From a virus, in the IMG/VR virus record IMGVR_UViG_3300037189_006220, positions 56,519 to 120,518 of that record: a stretch of 64,000 bases of DNA. One strand, 5' to 3'. Each line of letters begins with the position of its first letter. Positions within the stretch are counted from its first letter, which is position 1. This document shows positions 41,226 through 58,047 of this stretch, piece after piece. A program made the position numbers and the translations under genes. The notes beneath the pieces are model-generated. The model was not told the DNA's origin. It saw only the letters and a program-made list of their open reading frames with translations, and searched no databases.

Positions 41226-42905
41226 TTACTGTGCAGTTCCAGCTGAGTAGGCACTTGTTGTCATTTGAACAGCATGCCACCCAAAAATGTAAGGTCCTAC
41301 CCACGTAGAAGTATCAAGAACGTGGCGACCATATAGTACAAAGCCGGAGCTGGAAATTGAACCAGCATTTCCGACAAGTGTATATGCTGACGCGGATTGA
41401 CAGTTAACATTTACAACTGGAACTTGACTAAAACGTCCTGCTGGAAAAGTGACTGACACGCTAGCTGCAACCTGACTTCCACCATTAAGGCTTACAAGAC
41501 CAGCAGATTCAGCATATGCAGAATATGGAGAGTAGTTGTGACCAGTCGAGTAGAGCGTACCACCAGTATCAAAAGATACATAGTTAGTATTACTCCATCC
41601 ACCAATACGGAATACATTATCTGTATCTAGTCCCATATTTATGGCATAAATTCCGGGTCTATGGAAACTTATTGAAGCAGCGTTGCTACCATCTCCTCGC
41701 ACAGATAGTGCACCACTATCATTACTTCCAGAGATAGCACCTCCGGTGTTTGTTTTTCCAACAATAAGACCAGTCATTGAGCCACCAGCCAGAGGAAGTT
41801 TAGAACTTAGAGCATCATCAAGACCACTAACTTTAGCAGTAGCAATCGTCGAGACATTTTTCCATACACCATCAGCACCGACATACTGTATAAGGTCGCC
41901 ATCTGTTTTTGTGGCAGTATGCCCAATGCTCACATCGTGAAGCTCGTCTAGCTCGAAACCGTTTTGTGGGCGAACAAAAATCTCACCATTATTGCTATTT
42001 GCACGAGTAACAACGCCTATAAAAACTAGGTGAGCAGGAGCATACGGCTTATTAGTCAAACCATAGATAAGGTTTCCAGAAGTACCTAGCCACACCGGGT
42101 CACCCGCGCTAGCCGTGTGTGTATCAAGACCGGACAGTAGACCTTCAGTAATAACATTTACAAACGCATTAGTAGAACCGCCTGTTTCTAGCAATCCCAT
42201 AGTTTTACTAGAAGTAGCTTCTGTCGCATTTGATGCTTTAGAAACAATCATGTTAGTTCCGTTAGCAGAACTTACATATACAGCTTGCCCCTTGGTAATC
42301 GCTTCACCAAGTTTTACTTGATGCTTAATAGTTTGGGTATATGAAGCAGCGGGGGCTTCGTCAATCCATTGAGTGTTGTAGTCTGTCCCATCTACCTTAG
42401 AAAGAATTTGCCCAGCTGTACCCCCCGGGGGAAGCGATGAATTTGCATTAATTGTTGTAACAACAACTTGACTCAGGGAGTTAAGACCGAGGACATCAAT
42501 CGTGGGTGAAGTCGGAGGAACATACATATCTCCGTCAAGCACAAGATAGCCCGTGCTTCCCGGTTGGAGGACAATATCACCCGGGACAACTGTAGTATCA
42601 CCCACAGTAGACGGTCCAGGTCCACTAGTAAGCGTCAACGTAGAGTCAGAAACTATATTATTGACAATTCCAAGATGCTCGGTATTGATGGCACCACGAC
42701 TAATTTTTTGCCCCGAGACAGTTCGGTCAGCTACTTTATCGCCTGTAACGGAACCATCAGCAAAGTGGTCAGTGACAAGGTAACCAGCTTCAATATTAGG
42801 ATTACTAATATCTTTTTCAGAGTTGCCTTGACGAGAGTCAAGCTCGTTAATTTTATTTGCAATAGAGCGTCCAGCTCTATACCTATTACTCGCCAACTTT
42901 ATCAA
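41226..42905 (-). CDS. minor tail / tail fibre protein
   Basis: G.VT..K.A repeats, LDELHDV, LPLAGG.MTG, C-terminal V.FP.GRF...P H-lectin-like domain. Confidence 0.78.
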   Translation of the reverse strand: MIKLASNRYRAGRSIANKINELDSRQGNSEKDISNPNIEAGYLVTDHFADGSVTGDKVADRTVSGQKISRGAINTEHLGIVNNIVSDSTLTLTSGPGPSTVGDTTVVPGDIVLQPGSTGYLVLDGDMYVPPTSPTIDVLGLNSLSQVVVTTINANSSLPPGGTAGQILSKVDGTDYNTQWIDEAPAASYTQTIKHQVKLGEAITKGQAVYVSSANGTNMIVSKASNATEATSSKTMGLLETGGSTNAFVNVITEGLLSGLDTHTASAGDPVWLGTSGNLIYGLTNKPYAPAHLVFIGVVTRANSNNGEIFVRPQNGFELDELHDVSIGHTATKTDGDLIQYVGADGVWKNVSTIATAKVSGLDDALSSKLPLAGGSMTGLIVGKTNTGGAISGSNDSGALSVRGDGSNAASISFHRPGIYAINMGLDTDNVFRIGGWSNTNYVSFDTGGTLYSTGHNYSPYSAYAESAGLVSLNGGSQVAASVSVTFPAGRFSQVPVVNVNCQSASAYTLVGNAGSISSSGFVLYGRHVLDTSTWVGPYIFGWHAVQMTTSAYSAGTAQ

Positions 42906-45900
42906 TCGCCCATTCTGGAAGTAGCGTCAGCTGAACTGACTCAGGGAAAGTAGTACCATCTGGAACTGTAACTGAGTACGAATCAATTTTACGCACAATA
43001 ACATCTGGTCGAGTTTCATACCCGGCGGAAAGACGCTCAGATACAAAGTAATCTTGGACGATAATACTGCACCAATCACCCGGGGCATATGTTCCAACAA
43101 AAGGATTAAGAGAGCCATTTACTGTCATGCTCATCTTGATATCTGGGGGAGATGCCTCAACCATATACTTTTTTGCATATGCATAGAGAGTGGTCTTGTC
43201 ATTAATCTTACTTACCTTTTGGTCAGCATCAAGAATGGGCCATCGTCTCCCATCTCCGCCAGACCCCTTGAGCAAGTCATTAGCTGAGTAGACTGAGATG
43301 TTAGGTCCAATATTTGCCCCACCAGAAATCTCTCCCGTAGTAAAGAATCGAGTAGCGGATGTCTCAGCAGTTTCATTCATACTCATAGTGATGATATTTC
43401 CGGGATACTCAAATACAGTCTTATCAGCACCGAATCTACTCAGTGGTGACACCTCTCCTGTAGGAGGGGTCCCGGGAACATCATTAGCAATTAGAACAAA
43501 AGTCTTTATGAACTTGTTTGTATCAGCATCATAAGAACAGTCGATTCGGTAAGTAAATCCAGTAATACCATCCGAGTATGAGTCTAGAACTTCACCAACT
43601 GTTTTAAGTTCAGACCCGCGAACTGTAGTTGGAATAACATTTACACCAGAATACTCAGCGGTAGAAAATTTAATTCCAATATCTGAGTTACTAGGGAATG
43701 GACCAAATGAACTAACAATAGCTCGTGGAGTTGTCTTAGCATGACCATATCCCGGGGTGCCGACCACATCAATTGTACGTTGCCTTGTCAGAGTCAGTGA
43801 AGATGTGCCAGATGTAACTGCAATACCCGGGCTATTGTATGTGATAGTTACAGTAGTCGAGGTATAGGTTACGGAGGCGATTGTAAATGTGCCCAAGAAG
43901 CGGTCTGTATTGTCTCCAGAAATAGAGAATGTGCCACCAATTGTAATACCAGTTCCTACAGTGTAGTTATCTGTATTTATAGGAAGAACCACGGTACATG
44001 TAGAAGTAGTTGCTGTGGCTAATGTAATACTACGAGTTGCATATTTACTAAAGCGAACTGAATTAGCAGATACATCGTGGCTAGTAATCGTATATGTACC
44101 AGAAAAAGTAGACCGCTCGACAGCAAACCCAGATTGACCAGCAGTATCCTCATTTAAGTTTGTAGATAGTCCAGAAATGACTAGAGGATATTGGAATGAG
44201 TTAGTCGATACTCCAGTAATGATGGCATTAGAAGTATTAAATACACTCGGTTTTTTAACGTGACCATCTACCGTAACTTGGGACACAGCACTTGGTACAG
44301 TTTGAGAAAAAGTGAATGTATCTGCCGACACCTTGGTAATAGTCCATGTCGGATTAGCGTCAGTATTGTTGTGGATACTGTCGGTCTTAACAGTTGGCTC
44401 AACATCAGTAGTAGTAGCTGAAGTATTAAGAATAGAAGTACCAAACGGTAGACCAGCCACCAAACGCGTAACTACTCCACCAGTAATTGTGGTCAAAGAT
44501 GTTACTGCTCCTGTGTACGCATATGTGTAGGTTCTAGTACCATTAGAGTTTGCTGTAGCTGATGCCACTACAAAAGTGCCATCAAATCTAGAGTTACCCG
44601 TGGCAACAAGAATTGTATCACCAGCAGATAAGACAATGCCAGTAGTAATAATGGTGCATATTTTTGCTGTGGCAGAAACTTGAGCTACTGCACCACGAGT
44701 AAGTACATCATTTCGAACTGCTGTAACTGTTCCAGTTGTTGTAGTTGATGCCTCGGCAGTTCCACTAAGAAGATATGTAATCTTGACAACATTAGTATCT
44801 GTGCCAGAAATAGACACAACTGTATTCTCTACGCTCTCAATTTTTACAGAAGAAGTATTGTAGCGAGAGCCAACGCCAGCAACAACAATATAGTCGCCAA
44901 CAGCGTAGTTATGAAAATCTTCTAGAGTAAGTTCACATAGAGTAGCACTCGAGTATCGAATAAGAACATTACTTGTTTTTGTATAGCTAAAAGATTTTCG
45001 ATATGGAGTCCCGCCTACGGCGGGAATTGCGCTTACTCGGTATCGTCCAGAAAATATACTATCTGCCTTGGCTCGTGTAGTTGAATATACTCCATTAAGG
45101 ATGACAGACGATGGAGTCACCTCTGCAACATCAGAACCTTTAGACTCATAGGTAATAGTATTTGCCGAATAATCTACCCCGCTAAGGGTAAACCAATCAT
45201 CCGTACCCGAGGGGCTATCAATTCGAGTATTGCCGGTATAGCGGACTCGAATAGTATCTCCAACGGCATAGGGCGGAGTGGCGTTTAGAGTGATGGTAAC
45301 CGAGTTACCAGAGGCAGAATACTTTTTAATATCTGCATAGATAATGTCAACATTTCTAGGCAATTCATCATTTACTGATGGCTTATTGTATGAAACTGTA
45401 GTTGCTGTTACAGACGAAATTGTATAAATACCATTAAAAATACTTGTCTTCGATTTAGCAACGCCACTCGAAGGAATTGTTCCTGTATTTGCAGTAGAAA
45501 GAGCGTCTTTAAGTTTATTGAGCGCTGCAAGTTTTGCTTTTACAGTTGGGTCATTTGAGACAACTTTTACTTTACGATTTTTTGCTGAAGTAACAGCGTT
45601 GTTATATGCAGTATTAGCATTTACAATTGCTTGACTTGTCGTGGCTTTAAAGCCAATTGTTTGATTAGTAGTCTCGGTAATTTGATGGGTTCCATCATAC
45701 ATAACATCACCCGTGCCGGAGATAGTTATTTCATCATTAACTGAAAAGTTATGTGGAAAATCGAATGTAACTGTGGCAACTCCATCAACTAGAGTATGGG
45801 AAATAACTTTACGACTATCTTTCAAGTTTGAGACAGTGATTTGGTCATTTACCCGACAATTATTTGCCCCAATAGTTAAAGTAGCAACACCATCAGTAAG

Positions 45901-47826
45901 TTTGGCACTAGTAACATAAAAAATATCTGAGCCAGCATCTACATTGACCACACTTCCGGCTACAAGATTATGCTCCACCTTTGTGGTTACGGTAGCTACA
46001 TTTCCAATCATTGTTTTTGAGTCAATGCTATAAACATCTTGTAAATCAGAAATAGAGACAGTATCGCCTTTATTTAAATTGTGAGTAACCTTAGTTGTCA
46101 GCGTGACATCTTTTGTTGACCCCGTGCCCGTAATAGTTTTACTAATCAAGCTGAAGTTATCTTGTAGACCATACACAGAAATGACATCACCAACAGCCAT
46201 TTGGTGCTCGTCTTCTGTTGTAACCGTAGCAGTTTGCTTACCAGCATCCCAGTACTTATTAGTGATGGGGTGCTCTAAGTCAACATTAGTAAGAGTGACT
46301 GTCGAAGTCCCATCTACAACAGTTCCATAAGGTACCGCAGTAGTGATTTCTCCTACGCTTCCATTGAGAGAAGCACTTACCGTTTCGTATGCCGTACCAC
46401 CGATAGTCGCAATTGGTTGTGTAAATGGGATGTATGGAAGTGCCCCCTTATTGTCAATCTTGTATTGGATAGTCTTCTCAGAATCATTTACAGCGGTAAT
46501 TACGTATGTCCCATTAAAGGAAGACGCAAAACCGCCGAGGTAAAACTCGCATGACACATCAATATGTTGACCGATAGTAAACTTAGATAAAGTATTTACT
46601 CGATAAATAGTGGCAATCCCGCGGGAAGCTGAGACACCATTAATATCTGCTGTCTTGATAGCTACAGCCGTGGACGGAATAACTCCTCCACCATAAGGTC
46701 CTGCATAGACAAAAGTGTAATCATCAACAACATCAGTGACCTGATGTTCTCCATTAAAAATAGTAGTAGAAGTCTCATCAACATCAGCAATCTCAACAGA
46801 CTGACCCACCGCCAGCCCGTGGGCCTCAACGGTATTAATAATTACATTTCCGTACTGATTAGCCTCTTTATTTGCTACCTCAAACTGGTACCGTAGACCC
46901 GGTTCAATTTCTGAGTTAGGGAATTTAACGCCGTTAAAGTCTGTAGACATCGCTTCAATGATGTTACGAACATAGTCATATGTATCAGTGCGAATAACAA
47001 TACTAGCCAGCTGATAAATTCCTTGCGGAAGTTGTCGTACAACGGTGCCATCGTAGATGTCTACAAACCCCTCCGTATCTGCTCCCGGCAGGGTGTATGT
47101 GAACTGGTCAGATAGTGCACCAATGACAGCCGTAATTTTATACGTTCCGTTATACGAAGTATCGTCAGTAATATCTACGGTTACCGAGTCACCAACATGG
47201 AATCCGTGAGGAGTGCTAGTGGTAATTGTTACTGTGTTATCTGCCCGTTTAATGGCACTAACCGAGGCACGGCTTTTTGCTTCTTCAAGATAAAACTCAT
47301 TTACTGTAGAAAGCTGACCAGTAGATACTTTGTAGTATCCGTTATAGCTGAAGTTTGAAATTTCATTAAACTCAATTTTTACAGTAGAACCACCCTTAAG
47401 GGGGGTAGGTATTCCTGTAGAAAAAACAACATGAGCAAGGTCACCGATAACCTCAACTGTAGCCGTGTAGCCCTGAGCAAGAGTTTTCCAAATCTTACGG
47501 TGATGCAAATAGCTAGTAAACTCCGAAGCAGAAACCTTAAGTACACGCTCAACAACACTGTACTCGCGCGACCAAATAAGTCCACCCCACACACAGACAC
47601 CGTCACGAAGAACGTACAAAGCTGTATTGCCCGGGACGGTGTTTTTATATGCACTGAGGTACTGAGTGTCAATGATTACAGGAATCTCACCGGAGAATGA
47701 GCCAGCAGCTTTGAGGGCACGACCATATGAAACTCCTCGGAATGGAATTTCAGCAAGAATTTCATTAGAAAGTAAGTCAACGGTATAGTACCTGTATACA
47801 GGTGAGTGATTTAGTGGGTCGCTCAT
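42886..47826 (-). CDS. baseplate hub/Tal-like minor tail protein with large nested insertions
   Basis: N-terminal R....WGG.IW.R; C-terminal FEYPGNI, Y.PGD...I.D; follows Dit. Confidence 0.78.
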   Translation of the reverse strand: MSDPLNHSPVYRYYTVDLLSNEILAEIPFRGVSYGRALKAAGSFSGEIPVIIDTQYLSAYKNTVPGNTALYVLRDGVCVWGGLIWSREYSVVERVLKVSASEFTSYLHHRKIWKTLAQGYTATVEVIGDLAHVVFSTGIPTPLKGGSTVKIEFNEISNFSYNGYYKVSTGQLSTVNEFYLEEAKSRASVSAIKRADNTVTITTSTPHGFHVGDSVTVDITDDTSYNGTYKITAVIGALSDQFTYTLPGADTEGFVDIYDGTVVRQLPQGIYQLASIVIRTDTYDYVRNIIEAMSTDFNGVKFPNSEIEPGLRYQFEVANKEANQYGNVIINTVEAHGLAVGQSVEIADVDETSTTIFNGEHQVTDVVDDYTFVYAGPYGGGVIPSTAVAIKTADINGVSASRGIATIYRVNTLSKFTIGQHIDVSCEFYLGGFASSFNGTYVITAVNDSEKTIQYKIDNKGALPYIPFTQPIATIGGTAYETVSASLNGSVGEITTAVPYGTVVDGTSTVTLTNVDLEHPITNKYWDAGKQTATVTTEDEHQMAVGDVISVYGLQDNFSLISKTITGTGSTKDVTLTTKVTHNLNKGDTVSISDLQDVYSIDSKTMIGNVATVTTKVEHNLVAGSVVNVDAGSDIFYVTSAKLTDGVATLTIGANNCRVNDQITVSNLKDSRKVISHTLVDGVATVTFDFPHNFSVNDEITISGTGDVMYDGTHQITETTNQTIGFKATTSQAIVNANTAYNNAVTSAKNRKVKVVSNDPTVKAKLAALNKLKDALSTANTGTIPSSGVAKSKTSIFNGIYTISSVTATTVSYNKPSVNDELPRNVDIIYADIKKYSASGNSVTITLNATPPYAVGDTIRVRYTGNTRIDSPSGTDDWFTLSGVDYSANTITYESKGSDVAEVTPSSVILNGVYSTTRAKADSIFSGRYRVSAIPAVGGTPYRKSFSYTKTSNVLIRYSSATLCELTLEDFHNYAVGDYIVVAGVGSRYNTSSVKIESVENTVVSISGTDTNVVKITYLLSGTAEASTTTTGTVTAVRNDVLTRGAVAQVSATAKICTIITTGIVLSAGDTILVATGNSRFDGTFVVASATANSNGTRTYTYAYTGAVTSLTTITGGVVTRLVAGLPFGTSILNTSATTTDVEPTVKTDSIHNNTDANPTWTITKVSADTFTFSQTVPSAVSQVTVDGHVKKPSVFNTSNAIITGVSTNSFQYPLVISGLSTNLNEDTAGQSGFAVERSTFSGTYTITSHDVSANSVRFSKYATRSITLATATTSTCTVVLPINTDNYTVGTGITIGGTFSISGDNTDRFLGTFTIASVTYTSTTVTITYNSPGIAVTSGTSSLTLTRQRTIDVVGTPGYGHAKTTPRAIVSSFGPFPSNSDIGIKFSTAEYSGVNVIPTTVRGSELKTVGEVLDSYSDGITGFTYRIDCSYDADTNKFIKTFVLIANDVPGTPPTGEVSPLSRFGADKTVFEYPGNIITMSMNETAETSATRFFTTGEISGGANIGPNISVYSANDLLKGSGGDGRRWPILDADQKVSKINDKTTLYAYAKKYMVEASPPDIKMSMTVNGSLNPFVGTYAPGDWCSIIVQDYFVSERLSAGYETRPDVIVRKIDSYSVTVPDGTTFPESVQLTLLPEWAIDKVGE

Positions 47827-47870: not shown

Positions 47871-50800
47871 CTATCCAATCCAGCCAGAGCGATAATTAAC
47901 ACTTAGAGTAGAAGTTGTTGTGGTCTTTGTGGCTGCTCCATATGGAGTGCCAATTGATATTCCACCACTAGAAGTAATGGTTCCACCAATCAAGGATGCT
48001 ACCGAACCTACATTAGTTGGAGTTCCTGAATTGGTATAGGTGATGAGAGTTCCAGAGTAGGTAGTTCCAGACACAATAATTGACGTATTAGATGTCACCG
48101 CAACAATAGTTGCTCCCGAGGCATTGAACCTTGAGCTACCAGTATTAGCTACCGTAACACTTTGACCAACCAAGAAGTCAGAGTTTGTAGCAACAAGAAC
48201 AGAGCATGTAGTTGATGTAGCAGTTCCGCCATAGGTAGCTGCAATAGGTCCTACAGAAGCAGTAGTTACAGCTGGAGTCACCGTAGCATTAGTTGCACTC
48301 GCTGTCCGAGTCTGCGTAGATGCGGGGGTACTATTTACATAGGTTAGATAGGTTGTCCCACTAGAAGTACTGACCCCTGTCAAAACTTTTACGGAACCAT
48401 TATATTGAGCACCCACAAGATTAGCTACAGTAATAGCGTCTCCAACATTGTAGTTTGTTGTTGCAGCCACTTCTAGCGTACAAATAGACGATGTAGATGT
48501 TTGGTACAAAACACTATTAGACTTTGCAACAGTATAAGTTAGAGTATTGTAGCTATTTACAGGGACGGTAACATTATATGTTCCTGTGAATAGAGTGCTA
48601 TTAGTCTTATTAACAACAACTCCAGACGCATATGTACTGCCTAAGTCAGCAGAGGCAAGAGTTCCCGTACTAGAATATGTAAATGTTCTTGTTGTTGGAG
48701 TAGAAATAATTGGCACATTTACAGCATTAAACGCGGTGTTACTAGTGTTTGTGGCTATCCCTGACGCTGTAGCACTTGCAAATGTAGTACTCGGAATGGT
48801 GTAAGTAAGTGCATACATGCCAGTACCACTAGTAAGAGTTTTTGTGCCATTAAAAATATTCTTATTTGTGAGGTTTACAAGACTACCACTGCCAGTGGGA
48901 ATAGACGCGGATGCTACCGTACCAGATGAAGTAGTTGTATATGTAAATACATTACTCGATAGAACGGTAATCACATTTCCACTTGGAGCATTAGAGTCAG
49001 TAAGAGCGGTATTTGTCAGGTTGGAAATAGTTCCAGAGGGAACAGCGGTATCTGCCACAGTAGCAATTCCAGATGGAGATGTAAATGAGAATCTATCTGA
49101 CGCAGTTGCGGTAATTGAGTATGTACCAGATAGCGCAGTATTCGTCACATTAGTGACTGTAGTATTAGCAATACTCTGTGTTGAGTATGAAAGTGGCGAG
49201 CTTGCTCCTGTACTAGGAAGTGATAGGTCAGCAGTATCATTACCGGAAGTGTCTGTAGCAAGGTTTCTAGACTTTACATAAAACAGGTACGATAACCCTG
49301 AATCAAGATTATCCATCACATATGATGTTCCAACTAATGTGCTTATGACCAGAGTTTTTGTGGCTCCACCATCAGTTGACATATACAACTTATAACCAGT
49401 CACCGTAGAAGTAGAAGCTGTCCAACTAATACTAAGTCTTCCAATAGTTGCGCTACTAGCAACCACTACAACATTTGTTGGCGGAATTGGTAGCCCAGTT
49501 GTATTTGCACTAGCAATATTTGACGGCGCACCCGGAACACCTACAACATCAGAAACAGCGTTTCTAGCACGAACAACAAATGAATATGTTGTATTAGCAG
49601 AAAGCCCTGTAACCGTATATGTTGTTCCTGTACCAGTAGTAGAAGCTACCGGAGCACCAGACGTAGTGTAGATAGAGTATCCAGTAATAGTTCCGTTTGT
49701 TACTACAGGAGCGGTCCAGCTTAAATCAATAGCACCAAATGTAGTCACATTAGTATCCGCAGTTAGACCAGTAGGTGCCTCTGGAGGACCAGCTGTAGTT
49801 GCAGTAACTGCGGTACTTTGAGGAGAATACTGCACTGGAGATTGGCTATCTCCAAATGCATTTCGAGCAACCACAACAATGTTGTACGCCACTGGATATG
49901 CAAGACTAGAAAGCGTTACTACAGTACCTGACGCAGTACCAAGTTGAGTAAGCGCACCAGTTACTGTATTTTTACTATAGATAATATATCCAGTAATACC
50001 ACCGGCTGTGACAGATGGCGCACTCCATGAGGCAATAAGAGAACCAAACTGAGTGGTACTTACTGAAACAGACAAAGAACCGGGAGCACTCGGAATACCC
50101 GGTGCCATAACGGAGGTAGTGGAAGAAGATGCACTACTTGTAAGACCGTATGAGTTTGTAGCTTTTACATAGAACTGGTATGAAGTTCCAGCAGTAAGAG
50201 AGTTGACAGCATAGTTAGTACCAGTTGTAGTTCCTACAACCGAGTTATCACTAGCTTTATATATCGTATATGAAGTCAGAATACCATTAAGTGACGCTGG
50301 AGCAGTCCATGAAAGGTTGATTACACCTTGCGTATTAGTACTAGCAGATGCTGTAACAGATTGCGGGCTAGTGGGAGCAAGACCACCAGCAATAGCATTT
50401 GTGGGCCAAGAAGAAGGTTGCGGGCTAGTACCGTAGTCATTGCTAGCAGTAACAAAAAAGTTATACTGCACACCCGGAGTAAGCCCAGTAATAGCAACTC
50501 CGGTAATGGATGAAGAGTATGTATCATACGGTAAAGCTCCCCCATCACCGCTAGTATCTTCCATATATAGGGTGTAGCTAGTTACACCGTTAGGATATGT
50601 TGGAGGATTCCATGAGACATCAATCTCCCCCGCCGCGGTCATATTTGGAGTAGCACTGACGGATGTAGGAAGAGATGGGTATGGGTATGAGTAAACAGCG
50701 GAACTTGTTGCAGAACCAGCAGAGCTAGTAGCTGTTACTGTAAACCAATACCCTTGAGTGGGTGTCGCAGAAAAAGATGCTGACCTAGTGCTAAAGTCCA

Positions 50801-51380
50801 TTGCCTGAGCAGAACCAAATCCAGAGGTAGAGCTGGTGGTACTCACTTGATAGGTGTATGAAGTAATAGCAGGACCGCTATTGTAAACACCGGGGTCATT
50901 TGAAGAGACACTGATTGACGAGCCACTAAGACTTCGAGTAGTGCTGGCAGTCGGGGTACCAGGACCTCGAGAAATTGGAGTAAGTAACAAACTCTTCGTC
51001 GTCGTAGTCGCTGACCCAAGATTATCATTTGTCACAGCCGAGGCTACATACGAAATTGCTGCGTGAGTACCATCAGTATTGTGGACAATATCCATGTCTG
51101 TTGAAGAAGTACTTGAAGCAATAGTTACAACACTGCCCGTCTGAGCACGGAAGTCATATGCGAATGTTCCAGTACGGGTAGTACCGCCAATGGTCAATGA
51201 CCACGTACAGTTATTGTCTAGGTGGTATGCAGATACAGCTGTAGTCGGGTCAAGTTGAAGAGACCACGAGATTGTAGATGTATTCGTAGACGCAGTATAG
51301 TTTTCAGCTACGTTAAGAATTAGGGTTACGGCGCGACCAGAAAAGGCACCGGATGTAGAGCCAGTATATCCAGCAGTCAT
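47871..51380 (-). CDS. FN3-repeat minor tail protein carrying a Dit-like C-terminus
   Basis: H..DG N-domain, about five LSW.AP..Y..Y.F.V.A.N repeats, ends LSVNYRSGWIG. Confidence 0.8.
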   Translation of the reverse strand: MTAGYTGSTSGAFSGRAVTLILNVAENYTASTNTSTISWSLQLDPTTAVSAYHLDNNCTWSLTIGGTTRTGTFAYDFRAQTGSVVTIASSTSSTDMDIVHNTDGTHAAISYVASAVTNDNLGSATTTTKSLLLTPISRGPGTPTASTTRSLSGSSISVSSNDPGVYNSGPAITSYTYQVSTTSSTSGFGSAQAMDFSTRSASFSATPTQGYWFTVTATSSAGSATSSAVYSYPYPSLPTSVSATPNMTAAGEIDVSWNPPTYPNGVTSYTLYMEDTSGDGGALPYDTYSSSITGVAITGLTPGVQYNFFVTASNDYGTSPQPSSWPTNAIAGGLAPTSPQSVTASASTNTQGVINLSWTAPASLNGILTSYTIYKASDNSVVGTTTGTNYAVNSLTAGTSYQFYVKATNSYGLTSSASSSTTSVMAPGIPSAPGSLSVSVSTTQFGSLIASWSAPSVTAGGITGYIIYSKNTVTGALTQLGTASGTVVTLSSLAYPVAYNIVVVARNAFGDSQSPVQYSPQSTAVTATTAGPPEAPTGLTADTNVTTFGAIDLSWTAPVVTNGTITGYSIYTTSGAPVASTTGTGTTYTVTGLSANTTYSFVVRARNAVSDVVGVPGAPSNIASANTTGLPIPPTNVVVVASSATIGRLSISWTASTSTVTGYKLYMSTDGGATKTLVISTLVGTSYVMDNLDSGLSYLFYVKSRNLATDTSGNDTADLSLPSTGASSPLSYSTQSIANTTVTNVTNTALSGTYSITATASDRFSFTSPSGIATVADTAVPSGTISNLTNTALTDSNAPSGNVITVLSSNVFTYTTTSSGTVASASIPTGSGSLVNLTNKNIFNGTKTLTSGTGMYALTYTIPSTTFASATASGIATNTSNTAFNAVNVPIISTPTTRTFTYSSTGTLASADLGSTYASGVVVNKTNSTLFTGTYNVTVPVNSYNTLTYTVAKSNSVLYQTSTSSICTLEVAATTNYNVGDAITVANLVGAQYNGSVKVLTGVSTSSGTTYLTYVNSTPASTQTRTASATNATVTPAVTTASVGPIAATYGGTATSTTCSVLVATNSDFLVGQSVTVANTGSSRFNASGATIVAVTSNTSIIVSGTTYSGTLITYTNSGTPTNVGSVASLIGGTITSSGGISIGTPYGAATKTTTTSTLSVNYRSGWIG

Positions 51381-54034
51381 TATGCGCCCTTAGTGTATGT
51401 AAGTTGAGTGGCACTTGGGATAAAGGTCACGGTAACTGTTCCATTCAGAGATGTATTTGTCAGATTTGTAACTGTCTTACCAGACCCAAAAGTAGTTCCA
51501 GTTGTAGCAGTGTTACTTCCATAATATAAGTACGTGAATGACGTAGTTGTTGGGATGGATTGAATTACTACAGTTCCAGTATACTTGGCATCCGAGCTTC
51601 CTAGACCAGTAAGACTAATACTATCCCCAACAGTAAAGCTATGGGCTGATGTAGTATTAAGCGTTACCGTATACGCAGGTGAACCCCCAGAACCAGTAAA
51701 GACACCCGTGGTTGTCGAAACAACTGTTGCCGAAGCAGGAAGTGCAACGGTTATCTTATCTCCAACAGAAAAGTTGTGGTCAGAGGTTGTGGTTAGTGTA
51801 GCCGACGCTCCATAGATATATTTATTATTTACTGTAGTAGTTGTAGGTAGAGCTAACGTAACCGAGTCGTTTGTCGAAAAATAGTGCGGAGATGACGTAG
51901 TGATAGTTGACGTAGCACTTGTAATCTCTTTTCTAGCAGGAACAGCACTTGTAGCTAGGTCAACGGTAACAGCATCTCCAGTGGAGAATTTGTGGTCAAC
52001 TCCTGTAGTAATTGTTACAGTACTACCGCTGCGTGCCTTAGTTGAAGCAATAGCTGTCTCAGCAAGATTGATAGTAGCAACATCGCCAGACTGGAATGAG
52101 CCACTTACATCGACAGCAATTGTTGCAGTTGTACCGCTAGCAGACTTAGATACGATGGATGCTGTCTCATTAGTTGTAACAGAGACGATGTCACCAGCAG
52201 AAAATCCATGTTCATTTGTAGTAGTAAGAGTAGCTACATGGTTTGTTATAGATTTATTAAGCAGTGTCTGGCTATTGGGAACAGAAATAGCAATAGAGTC
52301 TCCAGTCTTATAAAAGTGTGGAGTGGCTGTTTCAATAGTTGCAACTTTTGTCGTGTAGTTATAGTTCTTTTTGACAACATCCATCGTATCGATAATGTCA
52401 ACAAATTTAATAACATTATCACCCGGGGCAAGATGAATCCAATCGATAACTGCATCTACACGATATCTACTATCAAAAGAATCTCCATTAAAAGAGATAT
52501 TTTTGTTATATGTATCAATTGATAGGGTGTCACTGCTGAATAGCGCGAGAGTACCGTTGTTTACAGTAGTAGCAGTAGTAGAAGTAAAATCAATAAGACC
52601 AGTAGTGTGAAAGCTAAACGAGTATGGCTCAATATTGCTTACCTTAGTGACTACATGTGATTGACCAGCAACGGTGTCTAGACCGCTACCCACACCACTT
52701 AGCGTAATATTGTCTCCAACAACCAACTGGTGTGGAGTAGAGGTTGTGAGAGTAGCAGTCTGTGTAACTACTCCAGTCTTATCTGTTGAAGACGATATTG
52801 TTTTTGATACTATATAGGCAAGAGGTGTAGTACCGCGGAGTGGTTGGGCTAGAGTTATTTTTTGGTCAGTTGTTTGATTGTAGATATAACTATTTGTTCC
52901 AGCTGGACCAGTAATGTCGAAGCGTACACGAACATCGGCATCGCCTTTATTGTTTACAGTAATAGTCCCTGTTGAAGCCGAAATAGAAAAAATAGTATGA
53001 CCATCTACATCTGAGTCATTCCACTCATACTTAATGGGGTCAGCAGCTCGTAGACCAATTGAAAACTCTGTACGACCACGAGTACCAGTTGTTTGGAACT
53101 GAGGGCGACCACTGAGACGAACATATGAGGCTTTAGTAGGCTCTTCACTTGTTCTTAGCCATGCACCCTTGCGAACAAGGTTTGTTACTGCAACAATTTT
53201 GTCTCGGGCAACAGCAAGTGACTCTGGGTTAGGTGGAAAAATTACACCGTGAAGGGTCAGTTGACGAGCACCATATCGACCAGTAACTTCATACGAACCA
53301 TCCTCAACGCCACGAGGAATATCTGGAACCTCAGAGTCTGGGTGACCCCACCAACCTTCGATGTCTGTACAAACCCAAACAACATTATTTTCATCAACTG
53401 TATTTAGAATTAAGTCACCTAGAGCAACATCAGCATTAAGTTGCATACCCGTAATGGGTGGAGGTTGAACAGGTGTAAGAGCCTTATTGACAACAGCATT
53501 TTCTTCAGCTTGAGTGAGGTTGTCAACATATTGACCAACATATGAAGACTGCTCAAAGAGAATAGCATCAAGGTAGAAATACTGCCCAGAAGCACTATCT
53601 GCTTGATATTGAGTTACTGAAATTCGAGCAGAAACTGCACTTGTAGGTGCCACACCAACAACAGCAATAGTATCCCACGGGTCACCAGAAAGTGTCGGAT
53701 TTGTGGGAGATACTGAGGATGAAATAAGAGTGTCATAGGTATCAAGCCACTCAATTGCTACATATAGGTTGATAGTAACTGACGAATCCACAATAAGTGG
53801 CAACAAAATATGAGCAGAGGCAGTATATTTGAGACCAGCAGTTACGGGAATAAGGTAGCTATCTGAGGTACGGACACCACAGTTAGGTGTACCGTTTTTA
53901 GTTACCTTTAGGCTTCCAACACCATACCATGCATAGTCTTTGCTAAAGCTGATTGACGACGTTCCGCCAGTAGCAACCCAACCCTCAGTACCCGCTCGGA
54001 AGGAGGGGTTATGGACAAGATTTTTACGTATCAT
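51380..54034 (-). CDS. distal tail protein (Dit) with CBM-like N-terminus
   Basis: NL..NPSF N-domain; GWW, R.L.L.G, L.A.DP.KY, N.G, L.PG.N.I.F; directly after tape measure. Confidence 0.8.
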   Translation of the reverse strand: MIRKNLVHNPSFRAGTEGWVATGGTSSISFSKDYAWYGVGSLKVTKNGTPNCGVRTSDSYLIPVTAGLKYTASAHILLPLIVDSSVTINLYVAIEWLDTYDTLISSSVSPTNPTLSGDPWDTIAVVGVAPTSAVSARISVTQYQADSASGQYFYLDAILFEQSSYVGQYVDNLTQAEENAVVNKALTPVQPPPITGMQLNADVALGDLILNTVDENNVVWVCTDIEGWWGHPDSEVPDIPRGVEDGSYEVTGRYGARQLTLHGVIFPPNPESLAVARDKIVAVTNLVRKGAWLRTSEEPTKASYVRLSGRPQFQTTGTRGRTEFSIGLRAADPIKYEWNDSDVDGHTIFSISASTGTITVNNKGDADVRVRFDITGPAGTNSYIYNQTTDQKITLAQPLRGTTPLAYIVSKTISSSTDKTGVVTQTATLTTSTPHQLVVGDNITLSGVGSGLDTVAGQSHVVTKVSNIEPYSFSFHTTGLIDFTSTTATTVNNGTLALFSSDTLSIDTYNKNISFNGDSFDSRYRVDAVIDWIHLAPGDNVIKFVDIIDTMDVVKKNYNYTTKVATIETATPHFYKTGDSIAISVPNSQTLLNKSITNHVATLTTTNEHGFSAGDIVSVTTNETASIVSKSASGTTATIAVDVSGSFQSGDVATINLAETAIASTKARSGSTVTITTGVDHKFSTGDAVTVDLATSAVPARKEITSATSTITTSSPHYFSTNDSVTLALPTTTTVNNKYIYGASATLTTTSDHNFSVGDKITVALPASATVVSTTTGVFTGSGGSPAYTVTLNTTSAHSFTVGDSISLTGLGSSDAKYTGTVVIQSIPTTTSFTYLYYGSNTATTGTTFGSGKTVTNLTNTSLNGTVTVTFIPSATQLTYTKGA

Positions 54035-57000
54035 TAGACGGAACCTTTACGCATCTGGAATGCAAGTTCGCGGGAGACGGCAGAGGCAAGTTCTGTCTCG
54101 CTCATTCCCGGGGATGGGTGTACGGAGATATTAATAGTTGGAGCTTGTGCTGGAGTATTACTAGTAAATGTAGCAGACCCATTGTTGAGCTGATTAAGAA
54201 GTGGCAGATAACGCTGGGTAGCTGCTGAGTTCATAACATACTCACCGGCAGAAAGCATCGCTGGGACACGGTCATCACGAGGTCCACCAGCACCGGAGAT
54301 AAATCCTCCATTAGCTAGAGCCTTGATAAATCCACCGTTCTTAAATCCGCTGAACTCGAAGGGAACGTCAAACACACCAATCTTAATATGTCCCTTCTTT
54401 TCGGCAGACTGCACACCAACCTTAACTGTAGTGTTCGCACTCTTGATGGCATCTTGAACTGTCTTAGGGAGCTTGTCAAACTCTTTTGTTCCCGGCTTAA
54501 TATCGATTACAGGAGGGGTATACCCAGCAATCTTATTTCCAGTTGTATTTAGGAACTGGTCAATTGTAATTTGACCCTTATCAAGTGCAGCTTGCGCGGC
54601 TGCCTCAAGTGGGGTAGTCACACCATCTGCAGCGATTGAGGCAAGAGCCGGTCCGTAGTTTGCAGACATTTGAGTAGCACTCTTCTGCGCTTCCTCAAGA
54701 AGAGAAGAGTTTCCAGCTTTAACCTGCTTGATAATCTCGGCTGATGTGAGTCCACCCTGCTCAAGAACTTTAATGGTTTCCGTACTAACACCCATTGCAG
54801 CTAGTGTTGCATCGTTAGCCATCTCTTCCATAAATGCCTTGTTTTTAGCTTTAAGGCTGGCTTGGAAATCTGCAACTGTAGTAGTGTGACCATCCACTAC
54901 TTCTCCGACTTTACTGAGTTGTGCGGTAGCAGCTCCAGACCCTTGAGCTAAGGCAACAAGCGAGTCAACTTGACGCATAACAGCTACAGCACCATCTCCA
55001 CGAGCAAAGGCTAGTTCTTTTTCCTTATTAATGGAGCCATCTTGATTAGTAATAACTACACCAAGCGCCGTAGCTTGCTCTTCCAAGGCGGTTTTATACT
55101 TAGGCATATTATCAAGAGCATCAATCTGCTGTGCAGTACTAAGTTCCTGACTTATCATCAACTTCTTGAAGCCATTTTCAGCAGTTGGGAGGTCAGTAGC
55201 TGCTACGTTAGCAAGCGAGTCCCCATAGGCACCCCAAGCCTTATGTAGTTCTGATAGAGCAGTATGGTAGTGAGCTAGACCGGCACGACCAGCAGCGTAA
55301 ACATTACCTGTTTTCTTGCCCGCATTGGTAGTTTCTTGTGCCCACTCCCCAGTTCTAGTCTTAACTTCACCAAGAGCTTTATGGACTCCCTCGACATCTT
55401 TCAGAGAGTCCTTAATAGGACTATCAGGAATTGATAGTAGAGCATCTCCCCAAGCTTTAGTAGCACTAGTACCGTTTTTAAGGTCTTCAGTTGTAGCTGT
55501 TACAGCCTTATCAAGGTTTTGCTGGTTAATTGAGATAACTGCAAAAATTCCACCAATAATAGCAGCAAGTGGCAGAATGATTGGTAGGAGTGGAGCAAGT
55601 GCTCCCCAGATAGCAGCTCCCATCCCAATAGCACCGACCTCTGCCGCAGCCTCGGAGACAGTAAGGGCATCATTTGCAACGGCAAGTCCACCTACAGCAA
55701 CAGCATTCTCTCCCTGAGCTACAGCAAGAGCCTCTGTAGCAGCTACGAGTTCTGCTTTTGTGCCTGTCATAAATGCTTCTGCAGCGTACTGCTCGGCATC
55801 TGCAAGGGCTACCTCAGTAGATGCAACTGCTTCTTGTGCCTTAGCAACATTCAGTCGCAGGGTAGCCATTGCAAGAGCTTGTTTAGATGCTGCTAGAGAT
55901 GCAGTAGCTGCGGTCTCTTTTGCTGATGCAGCAGTATTTTTAATTGCCCAAGCCTCAAGAGCAACTAGTGGCTTGAGTACCTGTCCAATAATTCCCTTGA
56001 AGATAAGGACAGCAGACGAGGCAAGTTTAAATACAAGACCGAAAGCAGATATTGTAGCAAAAACAGGACCTAATACATTAAGCAAAGGACCTATTGCTTT
56101 AACTACAGACTCAACTCCAGCTGCTACAAATCCAAGAGCATTAAAGAACGCAATAATAGAGCCGGAGTCTGCAAATACAGCAAGCATCTCCATAAGACGG
56201 TTAACAAGAATAGCCAATACTGGAGCAGTCTTTACAGACTCCATTACGACATTTCGGAAGGTAGCAGCTCCTGACTCAAGAATTTGCCAGAACTGACCAA
56301 TAGCAGGACTTGCTCCCGCAGCCATAATTGCGTGAATGACAATATTAAGAGTATCTAAAATTTCGGTAAGATTCTTAGAAGCTGCTTGGAAGTAGTTAGC
56401 CATAAATCCTACTGGAATATTCTTAAACCCAGCAGTAGCTTTTTCAATCCACTGAAGCATAATATCTCCGCCCGAACCCGGACCGATATTTGCTTGAATC
56501 ATATGACCTAGACCACCAAAGATGTTTCCAAAGGCATGACCAAGACGAGCCATTAAGTCGCCAGCAGTAGTGAAGAATTTTTGTAATTCTCCTGAAGCAG
56601 ACTTAGTATCTAGAAAACTCTTAAATGCGTTTGACTGCTTCTCTAGGAAGGTAGCAAATCGTTGAGCAAGAGGGGCAACTGCTTGAAGAAGGGTAAGTGA
56701 GTTGCCCAGCATGACAGCAGCTGTACGACCAAAAGTAGATAGTAGCCCAGCTGAGCTAGTAAAGATTGACCCAAGCTTGCCTAGGTTTTCAGAGCTAGTG
56801 AGTGCTTGAGCAATTGCTTTAGCAGCTCCACCCATTGCCCCACCCACCTCGGTGAGACCAGTCTTCAGTACCGGGAATGCTTTTGTTGCCAAAAGGTCAA
56901 TAGCATCAGTAAGGGGTGTTAGGAACGCATGTGCCACAGACTCTTGAAGGTCTTTAAAGAGTGGCTTCATTGCATAGAGATGCTTAACAAACTCAATCTG

Positions 57001-58047
57001 AGATTTAGTCAGATTCTTGAATGGGTCTTGACCACTTGCTGTAGCAGCTTGGCGACGCGCCTCAGCTAGAGCCTCTTGCGCTTTAATCTCTGCTTCGATA
57101 CCATCACGAACAGTACGTGACTTTTCTTGCTCTGCTTCGGATAGTGCCTTAGTAGCAGAGATAACAGTATCAGTACCAGCAACACCAACCTTAGCTAGGC
57201 GGTCTTGCTCTTTGCTGAGGTCAGCAGATTTGTCTTTAGCTCGTCTGTAGTTTAGGTCGGCTTCTCGGTAAGCCAATTCCGCTTCCTTGCGGGCACGAGA
57301 GTTAGGTGGAAGGTCTTGAACTTGAGCAAGAGCAGTACGGGCATCTTGCAAGGCAAGTGCTGCCTTCTGCTCAGATAGCGCTGCATCTTCAGCATCAAAT
57401 CCAAGTTGCTGAATTTCTTCTCGTCCAGCTTTGTAGGCTTTATTTAGGTTAATTTGTGCGTCTCGAACAGCATTATTAGCTTTGACAATGCTTTCGGCAT
57501 TACGTTGCATTGTTAGAGCAAGCTCACGCTCTGCATCACGAATACGCTTCTGCTCGGAAATTCGTTGCTGTGCTGTCTTACCGCCACTATTAAGTTTTCC
57601 TAGAGCAGCGCCCACACCACTTAAAGCCAGCTTAGCCGCAGCCATACCAGAACCAAAGGCAACAAAAATATTACCCAAGACTGCAATAGATGCGCCAGCT
57701 CCTCCAGCTACACCAATAAGTGCACCTAGACCGCCACCTACGGCACCTAGGCTACCTACCAGTGCTCCCAATGCAGACTGAACAGTGTATCCAGTGCGTA
57801 CTAGAGTGTGGAAGCCCTGAGCTGCTTTAAGTGCCTTAGGCTCAAGGACACCAATCTTATCCCCGAAATCCTTAAATACCGTGCTACCAGAGCTAGACTT
57901 ACTGAGTTCTTTATTTAGGCTCGTTCCAATACTACGACCAGCTTCGGCTCCAGCTTTTTCTGCGCCGTTGAACCCGCTACGAATATCGCTCTCAACCTTA
58001 GTTGTAATAGCGCGAACAATAATCTCAGCTTGACCGACGATTGCCAA
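54034..58047 (-). CDS. tape measure protein
   Basis: 1337 aa Ala/Gly-rich helical protein; D.VPAMLS.GEYV.N motif. Confidence 0.92.
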   Translation of the reverse strand: MAIVGQAEIIVRAITTKVESDIRSGFNGAEKAGAEAGRSIGTSLNKELSKSSSGSTVFKDFGDKIGVLEPKALKAAQGFHTLVRTGYTVQSALGALVGSLGAVGGGLGALIGVAGGAGASIAVLGNIFVAFGSGMAAAKLALSGVGAALGKLNSGGKTAQQRISEQKRIRDAERELALTMQRNAESIVKANNAVRDAQINLNKAYKAGREEIQQLGFDAEDAALSEQKAALALQDARTALAQVQDLPPNSRARKEAELAYREADLNYRRAKDKSADLSKEQDRLAKVGVAGTDTVISATKALSEAEQEKSRTVRDGIEAEIKAQEALAEARRQAATASGQDPFKNLTKSQIEFVKHLYAMKPLFKDLQESVAHAFLTPLTDAIDLLATKAFPVLKTGLTEVGGAMGGAAKAIAQALTSSENLGKLGSIFTSSAGLLSTFGRTAAVMLGNSLTLLQAVAPLAQRFATFLEKQSNAFKSFLDTKSASGELQKFFTTAGDLMARLGHAFGNIFGGLGHMIQANIGPGSGGDIMLQWIEKATAGFKNIPVGFMANYFQAASKNLTEILDTLNIVIHAIMAAGASPAIGQFWQILESGAATFRNVVMESVKTAPVLAILVNRLMEMLAVFADSGSIIAFFNALGFVAAGVESVVKAIGPLLNVLGPVFATISAFGLVFKLASSAVLIFKGIIGQVLKPLVALEAWAIKNTAASAKETAATASLAASKQALAMATLRLNVAKAQEAVASTEVALADAEQYAAEAFMTGTKAELVAATEALAVAQGENAVAVGGLAVANDALTVSEAAAEVGAIGMGAAIWGALAPLLPIILPLAAIIGGIFAVISINQQNLDKAVTATTEDLKNGTSATKAWGDALLSIPDSPIKDSLKDVEGVHKALGEVKTRTGEWAQETTNAGKKTGNVYAAGRAGLAHYHTALSELHKAWGAYGDSLANVAATDLPTAENGFKKLMISQELSTAQQIDALDNMPKYKTALEEQATALGVVITNQDGSINKEKELAFARGDGAVAVMRQVDSLVALAQGSGAATAQLSKVGEVVDGHTTTVADFQASLKAKNKAFMEEMANDATLAAMGVSTETIKVLEQGGLTSAEIIKQVKAGNSSLLEEAQKSATQMSANYGPALASIAADGVTTPLEAAAQAALDKGQITIDQFLNTTGNKIAGYTPPVIDIKPGTKEFDKLPKTVQDAIKSANTTVKVGVQSAEKKGHIKIGVFDVPFEFSGFKNGGFIKALANGGFISGAGGPRDDRVPAMLSAGEYVMNSAATQRYLPLLNQLNNGSATFTSNTPAQAPTINISVHPSPGMSETELASAVSRELAFQMRKGSV

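Follow-up and report, generated by a model that had tools for sequence, protein, structure and literature searches.

How could a distal tail protein (Dit) be completed if the last strand of its fold and the second halves of a series of small barrels are missing from its own polypeptide? The question is raised by a siphophage tail-tip module in the IMG/VR virus record IMGVR_UViG_3300037189_006220, positions 56,519 to 120,518 of which (64,000 nucleotides) are the stretch analysed here, called the window; the features described below lie on its minus strand and are given in window positions. Gene A (51380–54034, 884 aa), located directly after the tape measure gene, encodes the Dit, and gene B (47871–51380, 1169 aa) is the next gene. 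Dit is the hub for siphophage adhesion devices, with known accessory fibres joining it in the form of folded modules. An earlier note, made from the letters of the window, had proposed that this Dit is split and that its half-domains are completed in trans. Most likely, genes A and B together represent one evolved Dit, the side arm of which was cut by an old gene fission.

The Dit Fold of Gene A and Its Displaced Last Strand

The N-terminal (ring) domain of Dit corresponds to residues 201–405 of gene A (52820..53434), which match PHROG 5577 (minor tail protein, E = 1e-18). The Dit chains found for this domain by Foldseek are 2x8k_C (SPP1 Dit, E = 1.8e-5), 8zdo_m (Douge baseplate) and 9m8o_I (NF5 baseplate). 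The C-terminal galectin-like domain is incomplete within the polypeptide, since residues 489–546 (52397..52570) lead up to the LAPGDNVIKF strand without the final strand. The Pfam family SPP1_Dit is matched by residues 498–546 (E = 2.1e-8), which include LAPGDNVIKF (residues 535–544) and cover profile positions 38–83 of 97, the last 14 or so profile positions being gone. Unsplit Dit relatives, in contrast, match positions 36–97 and 37–97 of the same profile. These proteins (about 545 aa) end in ...W..LAPGxNxIxFxDxGxxxSxASLxVYYRS[GA]W[IL]G, about 26 residues past the PGxN motif.

A strand of this kind terminates gene B. Its residues 1155–1169 (47874..47918), with the sequence TLSVNYRSGWIG (...LSVNYRSGWIG), correspond to the strand with which unsplit Dits end, so that the Dit-like character ascribed earlier to LSVNYRSGW proved correct. 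R1164, S1165, G1166 and W1167 are invariant across 11 B-type proteins (alignment A2), and a search of all six frames of the window for the loosened motif [YF][RK][SPAT][GA]W gives a single match, the one that terminates gene B. Since unsplit relatives end in a strand that A lacks and B has, sequence comparison indicates that the last strand of A's own Dit fold is carried by gene B instead. The term "split distal tail protein" applies to the arm and to one terminal strand; the Dit core is not split, the ring and most of the C-terminal domain being intact in A. The combination that the earlier note had regarded as incompatible with its proposal, a full Dit fold in A and two proteins each folding alone, was not found, as A stops at profile position 83 of 97.

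The position of this strand was compared at 80 viral loci, 72 of which were evaluated; three were left out because the Dit ran off the contig end, and five (L060, L067, L078, L079 and L080) because a wrong, Tal-like open reading frame (ORF) had been picked for the Dit. The strand is carried by the Dit at 58 of the 72 loci, by the next gene at 11 and by both at none. Where the Dit has the strand, the next gene is without it (n = 43) or is incomplete or absent (n = 15). Where the Dit is without it, the next gene has the strand (n = 11), is incomplete (n = 2) or, at locus L036, lacks it as well (n = 1).

The last loop of the C-terminal domain can be regarded as the insertion site of the arm because several unsplit Dits carry inserts there. 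Those of L062 and L064 (625 aa) have one whole barrel in this loop, followed by ...LFKSGWLA. The unsplit Dit L057:9819-14900 (1693 aa), and likewise those of L058 and L059, has about 1300 residues in the last loop and ends in ...YYKSGWIG. In another set of unsplit Dits (P0104–P0120, 774–874 aa), six or seven whole FCCH-like barrels stand in tandem at an internal insertion site and the terminal strand is kept in cis. The fused homologues that the earlier note had in view were not encountered: no chain combining Dit, full nested arm and strand occurs among the 120 near-length database matches listed (of 204) or the five longer matches.

Half-Barrels on Two Polypeptides

Gene A shows the evolved-Dit trait of modules inserted in the C-terminal domain, namely one whole barrel and an arm that starts after residue 546. 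The whole FCCH-like barrel (residues 423–478, 52601..52768) lies upstream of LAPGDNVIKF; its residues 427–478 match Pfam E1_FCCH (PF16190) with E = 3.9e-9 and 36.9 bits versus a cut-off of 29.5, and the barrel has four strands in the AlphaFold2 (AF2) model. The units of the arm are tied to E1_FCCH through hidden Markov models (HMMs) of the N-half and the C-half, the Pfam cut-off being passed by the 423–478 barrel. Six stacked N-halves, N1–N6, occupy residues 553–772 (51719..52378) and were located by an HMM seeded on the repeats at 555–584, 592–620, 627–656, 664–692, 700–728 and 735–764, with a 36-residue spacing. The strict version of the N-half motif of the earlier note recovers four of the six units and the internal whole domain at 428.

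The N-halves are followed by a whole barrel at the arm tip (residues 789–836, 51527..51670), recognised by adjacent N-half and C-half HMM matches (N part 789–809, C part 817–835) and by the strands of the AF2 model. A single C-half, c6 (residues 853–884, 51383..51478; C-half HMM match at 854–883, 45.5 bits), stands at the end of the protein (...TYTKGA) and would complete N6 in cis. The HMMs thus located everything previously described after LAPGDNVIKF in gene A, that is, six N-halves, one whole domain and one C-half.

Five further C-halves, c1–c5, are stacked in residues 735–955 of gene B (48516..49178). They were identified by HMM and alignment at residues 741–770, 784–818, 833–864, 875–906 and 921–952 (about nt 48525–49160). 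HMM units and Pfam fn3 matches agree with the earlier account of gene B as TAATG-coupled, with FN3 repeats and then five C-halves at about 48530–49170. Between c5 and the terminal strand, two whole barrels are present (residues 960–1130, 47991..48503), for which the HMM matches are N 962–986 with C 984–1006 and N 1064–1078 with C 1076–1100. This stretch is an insertion without counterpart in 7 of 10 relatives in alignment A2, and its site is variable. Across the 11 aligned B-type proteins the five units are in register and the tail P.G..R..S....YRSGWxG is kept, and the stretch between unit five and the tail varies.

A phmmer search with B 728–1169 against the full set of representatives gave 11 matches, among them three complete B-type proteins and an unrelated repeat protein (P0133); a word-indexed homologue search with B 700–1169 returned the window's own protein alone. 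One B-type protein, P0135 (982 aa), opens directly with the five C-halves, and a CBM-like stretch of about 700 residues separates its fifth unit from its YRSGWLG end; therefore, the cargo site can be proximal instead of N-terminal.

At the 12 complete loci with an arm-bearing Dit, the next gene has a C-half stack in every case (12/12) and the terminal strand in 11. Arm-bearing Dit and B-type gene thus appear always to occur together.

Half-Domain Counts and Nesting

The balance of halves was measured as the total number of N matches minus the total number of C matches past the Dit motif. Sorting of the units into whole and orphan ones by HMM was rejected, because the C-halves of whole domains were often missed. 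The strand terminates 17 of the 120 listed database proteins and is missing from the end of the other 103. In 87 of these 103, a loosened regular expression located where the arm begins, and the other 16 were left uncounted; the strict expression had failed for 36 of 121 database proteins. N minus C equals 5 in 69 of the 87 Dit arms, 4 in 11 and 6 in 7, and the pairs (N,C) span from (7,2) to (11,6). All five longer homologues give 5. These proteins (P0122–P0126, 1695–2762 aa) are arm-bearing Dits with 1000–2300 extra residues N-terminal to the Dit core. On the side of the B-type proteins, the HMM string is ccccc in 11 of 14 pairs, as well as in the complete proteins P0127, P0128 and P0135.

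Strings such as nnnnnnnnccc and nnnnnnnnnnncccccc show that the arm grows by nesting and not in tandem. The halves of one domain are separated by further copies in mirror order (n...n W c...c), both in Dit arms and in Tal proteins. In the Tal proteins of relatives (e.g., L010:14907-18611 and L005:16117-19818) the string nnnnn W ccccc is found in one chain, which represents nesting of this kind in cis. In the window itself, Tal (1646 aa) has a more complex build, in which a helical linker follows the whole barrel.

Residue shuffles of the A arm and the B stack (200 of each) gave on average 0.35–0.46 HMM matches and at most 3, versus 7 N and 2 C matches in the real A arm and 4 to 5 C matches in the real B stack. 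The HMMs were trained on these very sequences, and conservation in relatives is a better control than shuffling.

Predicted Complex of the Arm and the Stack

Residues 547–884 of A and 728–960 of B were modelled as a complex, each with its own alignment, together with three control pairings. The interface score ipSAE is 0.79 (0.80, 0.78 and 0.79 in separate runs), versus 0.00 for the best of the three controls. As a reference, 58 of 80 solved complexes attain the score mark used, compared with 2 of 110 mismatched pairs; these rates are rough here since own alignments were used. The runs share at least 95% of contacts, and the predicted local distance difference test (pLDDT) of the partner is at least 85. 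When an unrelated protein replaces A, the pLDDT of the B stack is 36.

About 890 contacts are predicted, including A711–B764, A727/729/731–B751/747/744, A675–B812 and A685/687–B804, and residues 575–740 of A form the interface with B. According to the lowest-error pairs the register is antiparallel, with c1 on N5 and c2 on N4, as would be expected were B to take over from A's chain on its way back. The leading strand of each C-half also contacts the next barrel outward, and A's C-terminal half-barrel and tip barrel contact the start of the B stack. The multimer prediction of the two proteins, antiparallel and clear of its controls, came out as the earlier proposal would have it. It supports binding of the A and B products to each other, and the predicted interface likewise supports the view that an N-half and a C-half close together into each barrel of the arm.

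In the AF2 model of A alone (98-row alignment, mean pLDDT 85.9), the GDxVxV strand is left without a sheet partner in N1–N5 and is paired in N6 (strand 760–763), beside the cis C-half. The model of B alone (11-row alignment) has a mean pLDDT of 47.3. PDB sequence searches with A and B gave no match to the arm or the stack, the matches of A being chance ones with E > 0.1 and those of B being FN3 proteins, and by sequence the PDB holds no complex of this kind.

Strand transfer, the N-minus-C excess of five, co-occurrence and complex prediction, as four independent lines of evidence, support completion in trans, and it is quite probable that A and B complete each other in this manner, the orphan N-halves pairing with B's C-halves. 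The pairing of five orphan halves with five, as put forward earlier, agrees with the counts, the co-occurrence and the ipSAE of 0.79.

Proposed Origin and Assembly of the Split Arm

In the unsplit ancestor, the last loop of the Dit C-terminal domain would have linked the PGxN strand to the final YYRSGWxG strand. This loop could have taken up a small FCCH-like beta-barrel, and later barrels could each have entered the preceding barrel at the loop that joins its N-half to its C-half. The chain would then run outward as the N-half stack, turn in the whole tip barrel and return as the C-half stack to the final Dit strand. A cut on the return limb would leave A with the Dit body, N1–N6, the tip barrel and c6, and B with the remaining C-halves c5–c1 (c1 to c5 in the sequence order of B) and the final Dit strand. 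The cargo of B would comprise its N-terminal domain and five FN3 domains, which would branch off where barrels 5 and 6 of the rod meet, and, close to the hub, two extra barrels.

On assembly, B would zip antiparallel onto A, whereby five barrels would be completed and the Dit C-terminal domain closed by the last strand. The Dit subunits, presumably six in number, would then each bear a rod of seven barrels, from which an FN3 branch for host adhesion would extend sideways. The adhesion role is suggested by the CBM, the FN3 domains and the exposed barrels. The TAATG overlap would aid equimolar synthesis of the two products. Of the rod with FN3 domains at its tip that had been envisaged, the rod is retained and the location of the FN3 domains is not: the rod tip is A's whole domain (789–835), and the FN3 branch departs two barrels below it, between barrels 5 and 6 of 7, beside A's C-terminus.

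It is moderately probable that the fibre is anchored in this way by obligatory co-folding and not by docking of folded domains. Five half-barrels and the terminal strand of B would interdigitate with A, neither partner would be complete alone, and the zipper would check stoichiometry during tail-tip assembly.

Alternative Explanations

The repeats could instead be self-sufficient. The 36-residue units of A would then form a continuous beta structure or mini-domains of three strands each, the 43-residue units of B would fold alone, and B would dock ordinarily or via the terminal strand only. Each C-half has an extra leading strand (vtNxTN), which could make a three-stranded sheet (A 853–881), and AF2 gives the N-half stack of A alone a pLDDT of 78–88. 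This explanation is nevertheless unlikely. The GDxVxV strands of N1–N5 are unpaired in the A-alone model, N minus C is held at 5 while the arms grow from (7,2) to (11,6), and B-type proteins always have five units; the complex prediction (0.79 versus 0.00) has the barrel-by-barrel register expected for completion, and without A the pLDDT of the B stack falls to 36. Another partner for the orphan N-halves of Dit is considerably less probable still. Candidates would be the C-halves of gene C (Tal-like) or neighbouring Dit arms, given that gene C and its relatives hold stacks of both half types and that some Tal strings have one extra C call at the N-terminus. Tal strings are, however, balanced or off by one (nnnnn W ccccc) and offer no five spare C-halves, nor do Dit arms hold spare ones, whereas the B-type gene has the terminal strand at 11 and the C-half stack at all 12 of the complete arm-bearing loci. 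Least credible of all, and close to negligible, is an artefact, with A and B as one gene broken by sequencing or assembly error or as a decaying pseudogene. The two ORFs do abut (TAATG), but the same split point, after the cis C-halves, recurs at 11 evaluated viral loci and in the 103 database Dits without the strand, the split is present in complete genomes of cultured phages too, with the genes 10–18 nt apart, and about 730 residues of B's own precede the stack.

Several observations weigh against completion of the arm of A by gene B. The B-type protein of L036 (L036:13063-19371, 2102 aa) has five C-halves and no YRSGW strand; it runs on into repeated CBM-like modules and is the sole exception to the strand rule. 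The HMM counts are noisy, 18 of 87 arms giving 4 or 6, and N minus C equals 4 in the arms of Cece and L006. The window's own B scores only 3 for c minus n by HMM, because c2 is missed (an insertion in unit 2) and one N call is spurious; by eye and alignment it has five C-half units and two whole barrels. The constant count of five would derive from shared ancestry, which makes it the record of one old conserved fission and not of repeated independent events. As regards the models, the program may pair the halves because they resemble a known whole barrel, and the score would then express complementarity and not binding. The pairing of c3–c5 with N3–N1 is read from the interface residue list and not from named low-error pairs, and docking of the terminal strand into Dit, a step that would take place outside the modelled part of the complex, is an inference. 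The pLDDT of 78–88 mentioned above means that the N-half stack of A may hold a structure of its own. In the model of B alone the stack has low confidence (pLDDT 24–47) and is not modelled as folded, as the earlier proposal would have it, but B's two whole barrels are equally low and the run does not discriminate. Finally, all the evidence consists of sequence comparison and structure prediction.

Other Domains and Gene Organization of the Module

The N-terminal domain of gene A (residues 1–165, 53540..54034) is CBM-like by Foldseek of the AF2 model. It matches CBM16, CBM22 and CBM4 chains of the PDB with E of about 2e-7 and TM (target) of 0.65–0.79, and Pfam CBM_4_9 is present in relatives of gene A. 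In gene B, residues 231–725 (49206..50690) comprise five FN3 domains (Pfam fn3, E = 7.9e-42, five stretches). The PDB matches of this region are the FN3 domains of titin and neogenin, and its AF2 pLDDT is 70–90 over residues 333–710.

Residues 1–230 of B (50691..51380) form an N-terminal domain common to Cece gp82 (BLASTP, E = 1e-4), with low AF2 pLDDT. In the public annotation, B (P0121, 1074 aa) begins 95 codons downstream of the TAATG start (window 51095–51380). The TAATG start is likelier, because the N-terminus of Cece gp82 has an aligned counterpart in residues 25–147 of the long ORF (E = 1e-4).

The tail-tip module consists of the genes of the tape measure protein (54034..58047, 1337 aa, from the ORF list), A, B and a Tal-like protein, gene C (42886–47826, 1646 aa, PHROG 1885). 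TAATG stop/start overlaps are present at both junctions, between the tape measure gene and A and between A and B. The same gene order is found in the Microbacterium phages Cece and Zooman, in which a tape measure protein is annotated at this place and the A-, B- and C-type genes are annotated only as minor tail proteins. Pfam scans of the tape measure protein, residues 1–147 of B and four neighbouring ORFs gave zero matches.

Comparison with Known Systems

Evolved Dits of siphophages of Gram-positive bacteria carry carbohydrate-binding modules inserted in the C-terminal galectin-like domain (PMC10688798, PMC7533335, PMC7291167). As far as the available parts of these reports describe them, they share with the present system the position after the tape measure gene, the ring and C-terminal domains, the modules in loops of the C-terminal domain and a presumed adhesion role. 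They differ in that here a rod of self-nested FCCH-like barrels occupies the last loop, and the rod and the last strand are distributed over two genes.

The closest unsplit counterparts are Dits of actinobacterial phages, represented by L028 and L020 (545–564 aa), L062 (625 aa, one loop barrel) and the minor tail protein of Actinomycetia phage DSL-LC01. Like gene A, they have the CBM, the ring and the C-terminal domain, with 41–50% identity over residues 1–546; unlike it, they keep the YYRSGWxG strand in cis and are followed by Tal, with no B-type gene. Cece (gp81, gp82) and Zooman (gp83, gp84) have the same division as the window, a Dit with an N-half stack and a next gene with FN3, five C-halves and YRSGWxG. 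Their identity is about 38–40%, and their B-type proteins are without the two extra barrels before the terminal strand.

In the donor-strand complementation of chaperone-usher pili, a second polypeptide donates the last strand that a fold lacks. One strand and one Ig-like fold are involved there, whereas the present case would involve five half-barrels and a strand, would have arisen by gene fission and has no homology to the pili.

Nesting of a repeated beta domain has a parallel in the Si3 insertion of the cyanobacterial RNA polymerase beta' subunit, the SBHM repeats of which do not follow in simple tandem, several copies being assembled from distant parts of the chain into an elongated rod (PMC10895346). 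Both systems consist of one small beta domain that is repeated, nested and rod-forming; Si3 differs in its SBHM fold, in belonging to another machine and in having all its nested parts on a single polypeptide, so that nothing is completed in trans. FCCH-like decoration domains are also described on siphophage tail tube proteins, as a six-stranded barrel outside the tail (PMC13576161). The small barrel is the same, but each subunit there bears one whole copy of it, and neither nesting nor a split is involved.

Significance for the Phage Family

In the literature searched, which lay mainly outside subscription papers and supplements, nothing on a Dit arm that is split or nested was found. The family includes at least 103 database Dits (among the 120 listed of 204), 11 viral loci and cultured Microbacterium phages, and across the whole of it the side fibre appears to be attached by domains divided between two polypeptides. 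The split arm is conserved, unusual and testable in the cultured phages Cece and Zooman, for which laboratory strains of Microbacterium serve as hosts. If the zipper reading is true, only the zipper would be conserved in the B family, and the adhesin cargo would be exchangeable at the N-terminus and in the stretch before the terminal strand. The system would then be an example from nature of fragment complementation that follows gene fission and extends over several domains. It would also provide a rule for reading such tail modules, in which N-halves are counted against C-halves and a displaced YRSGWxG strand is looked for, and would point to where host-range cargo is exchanged.

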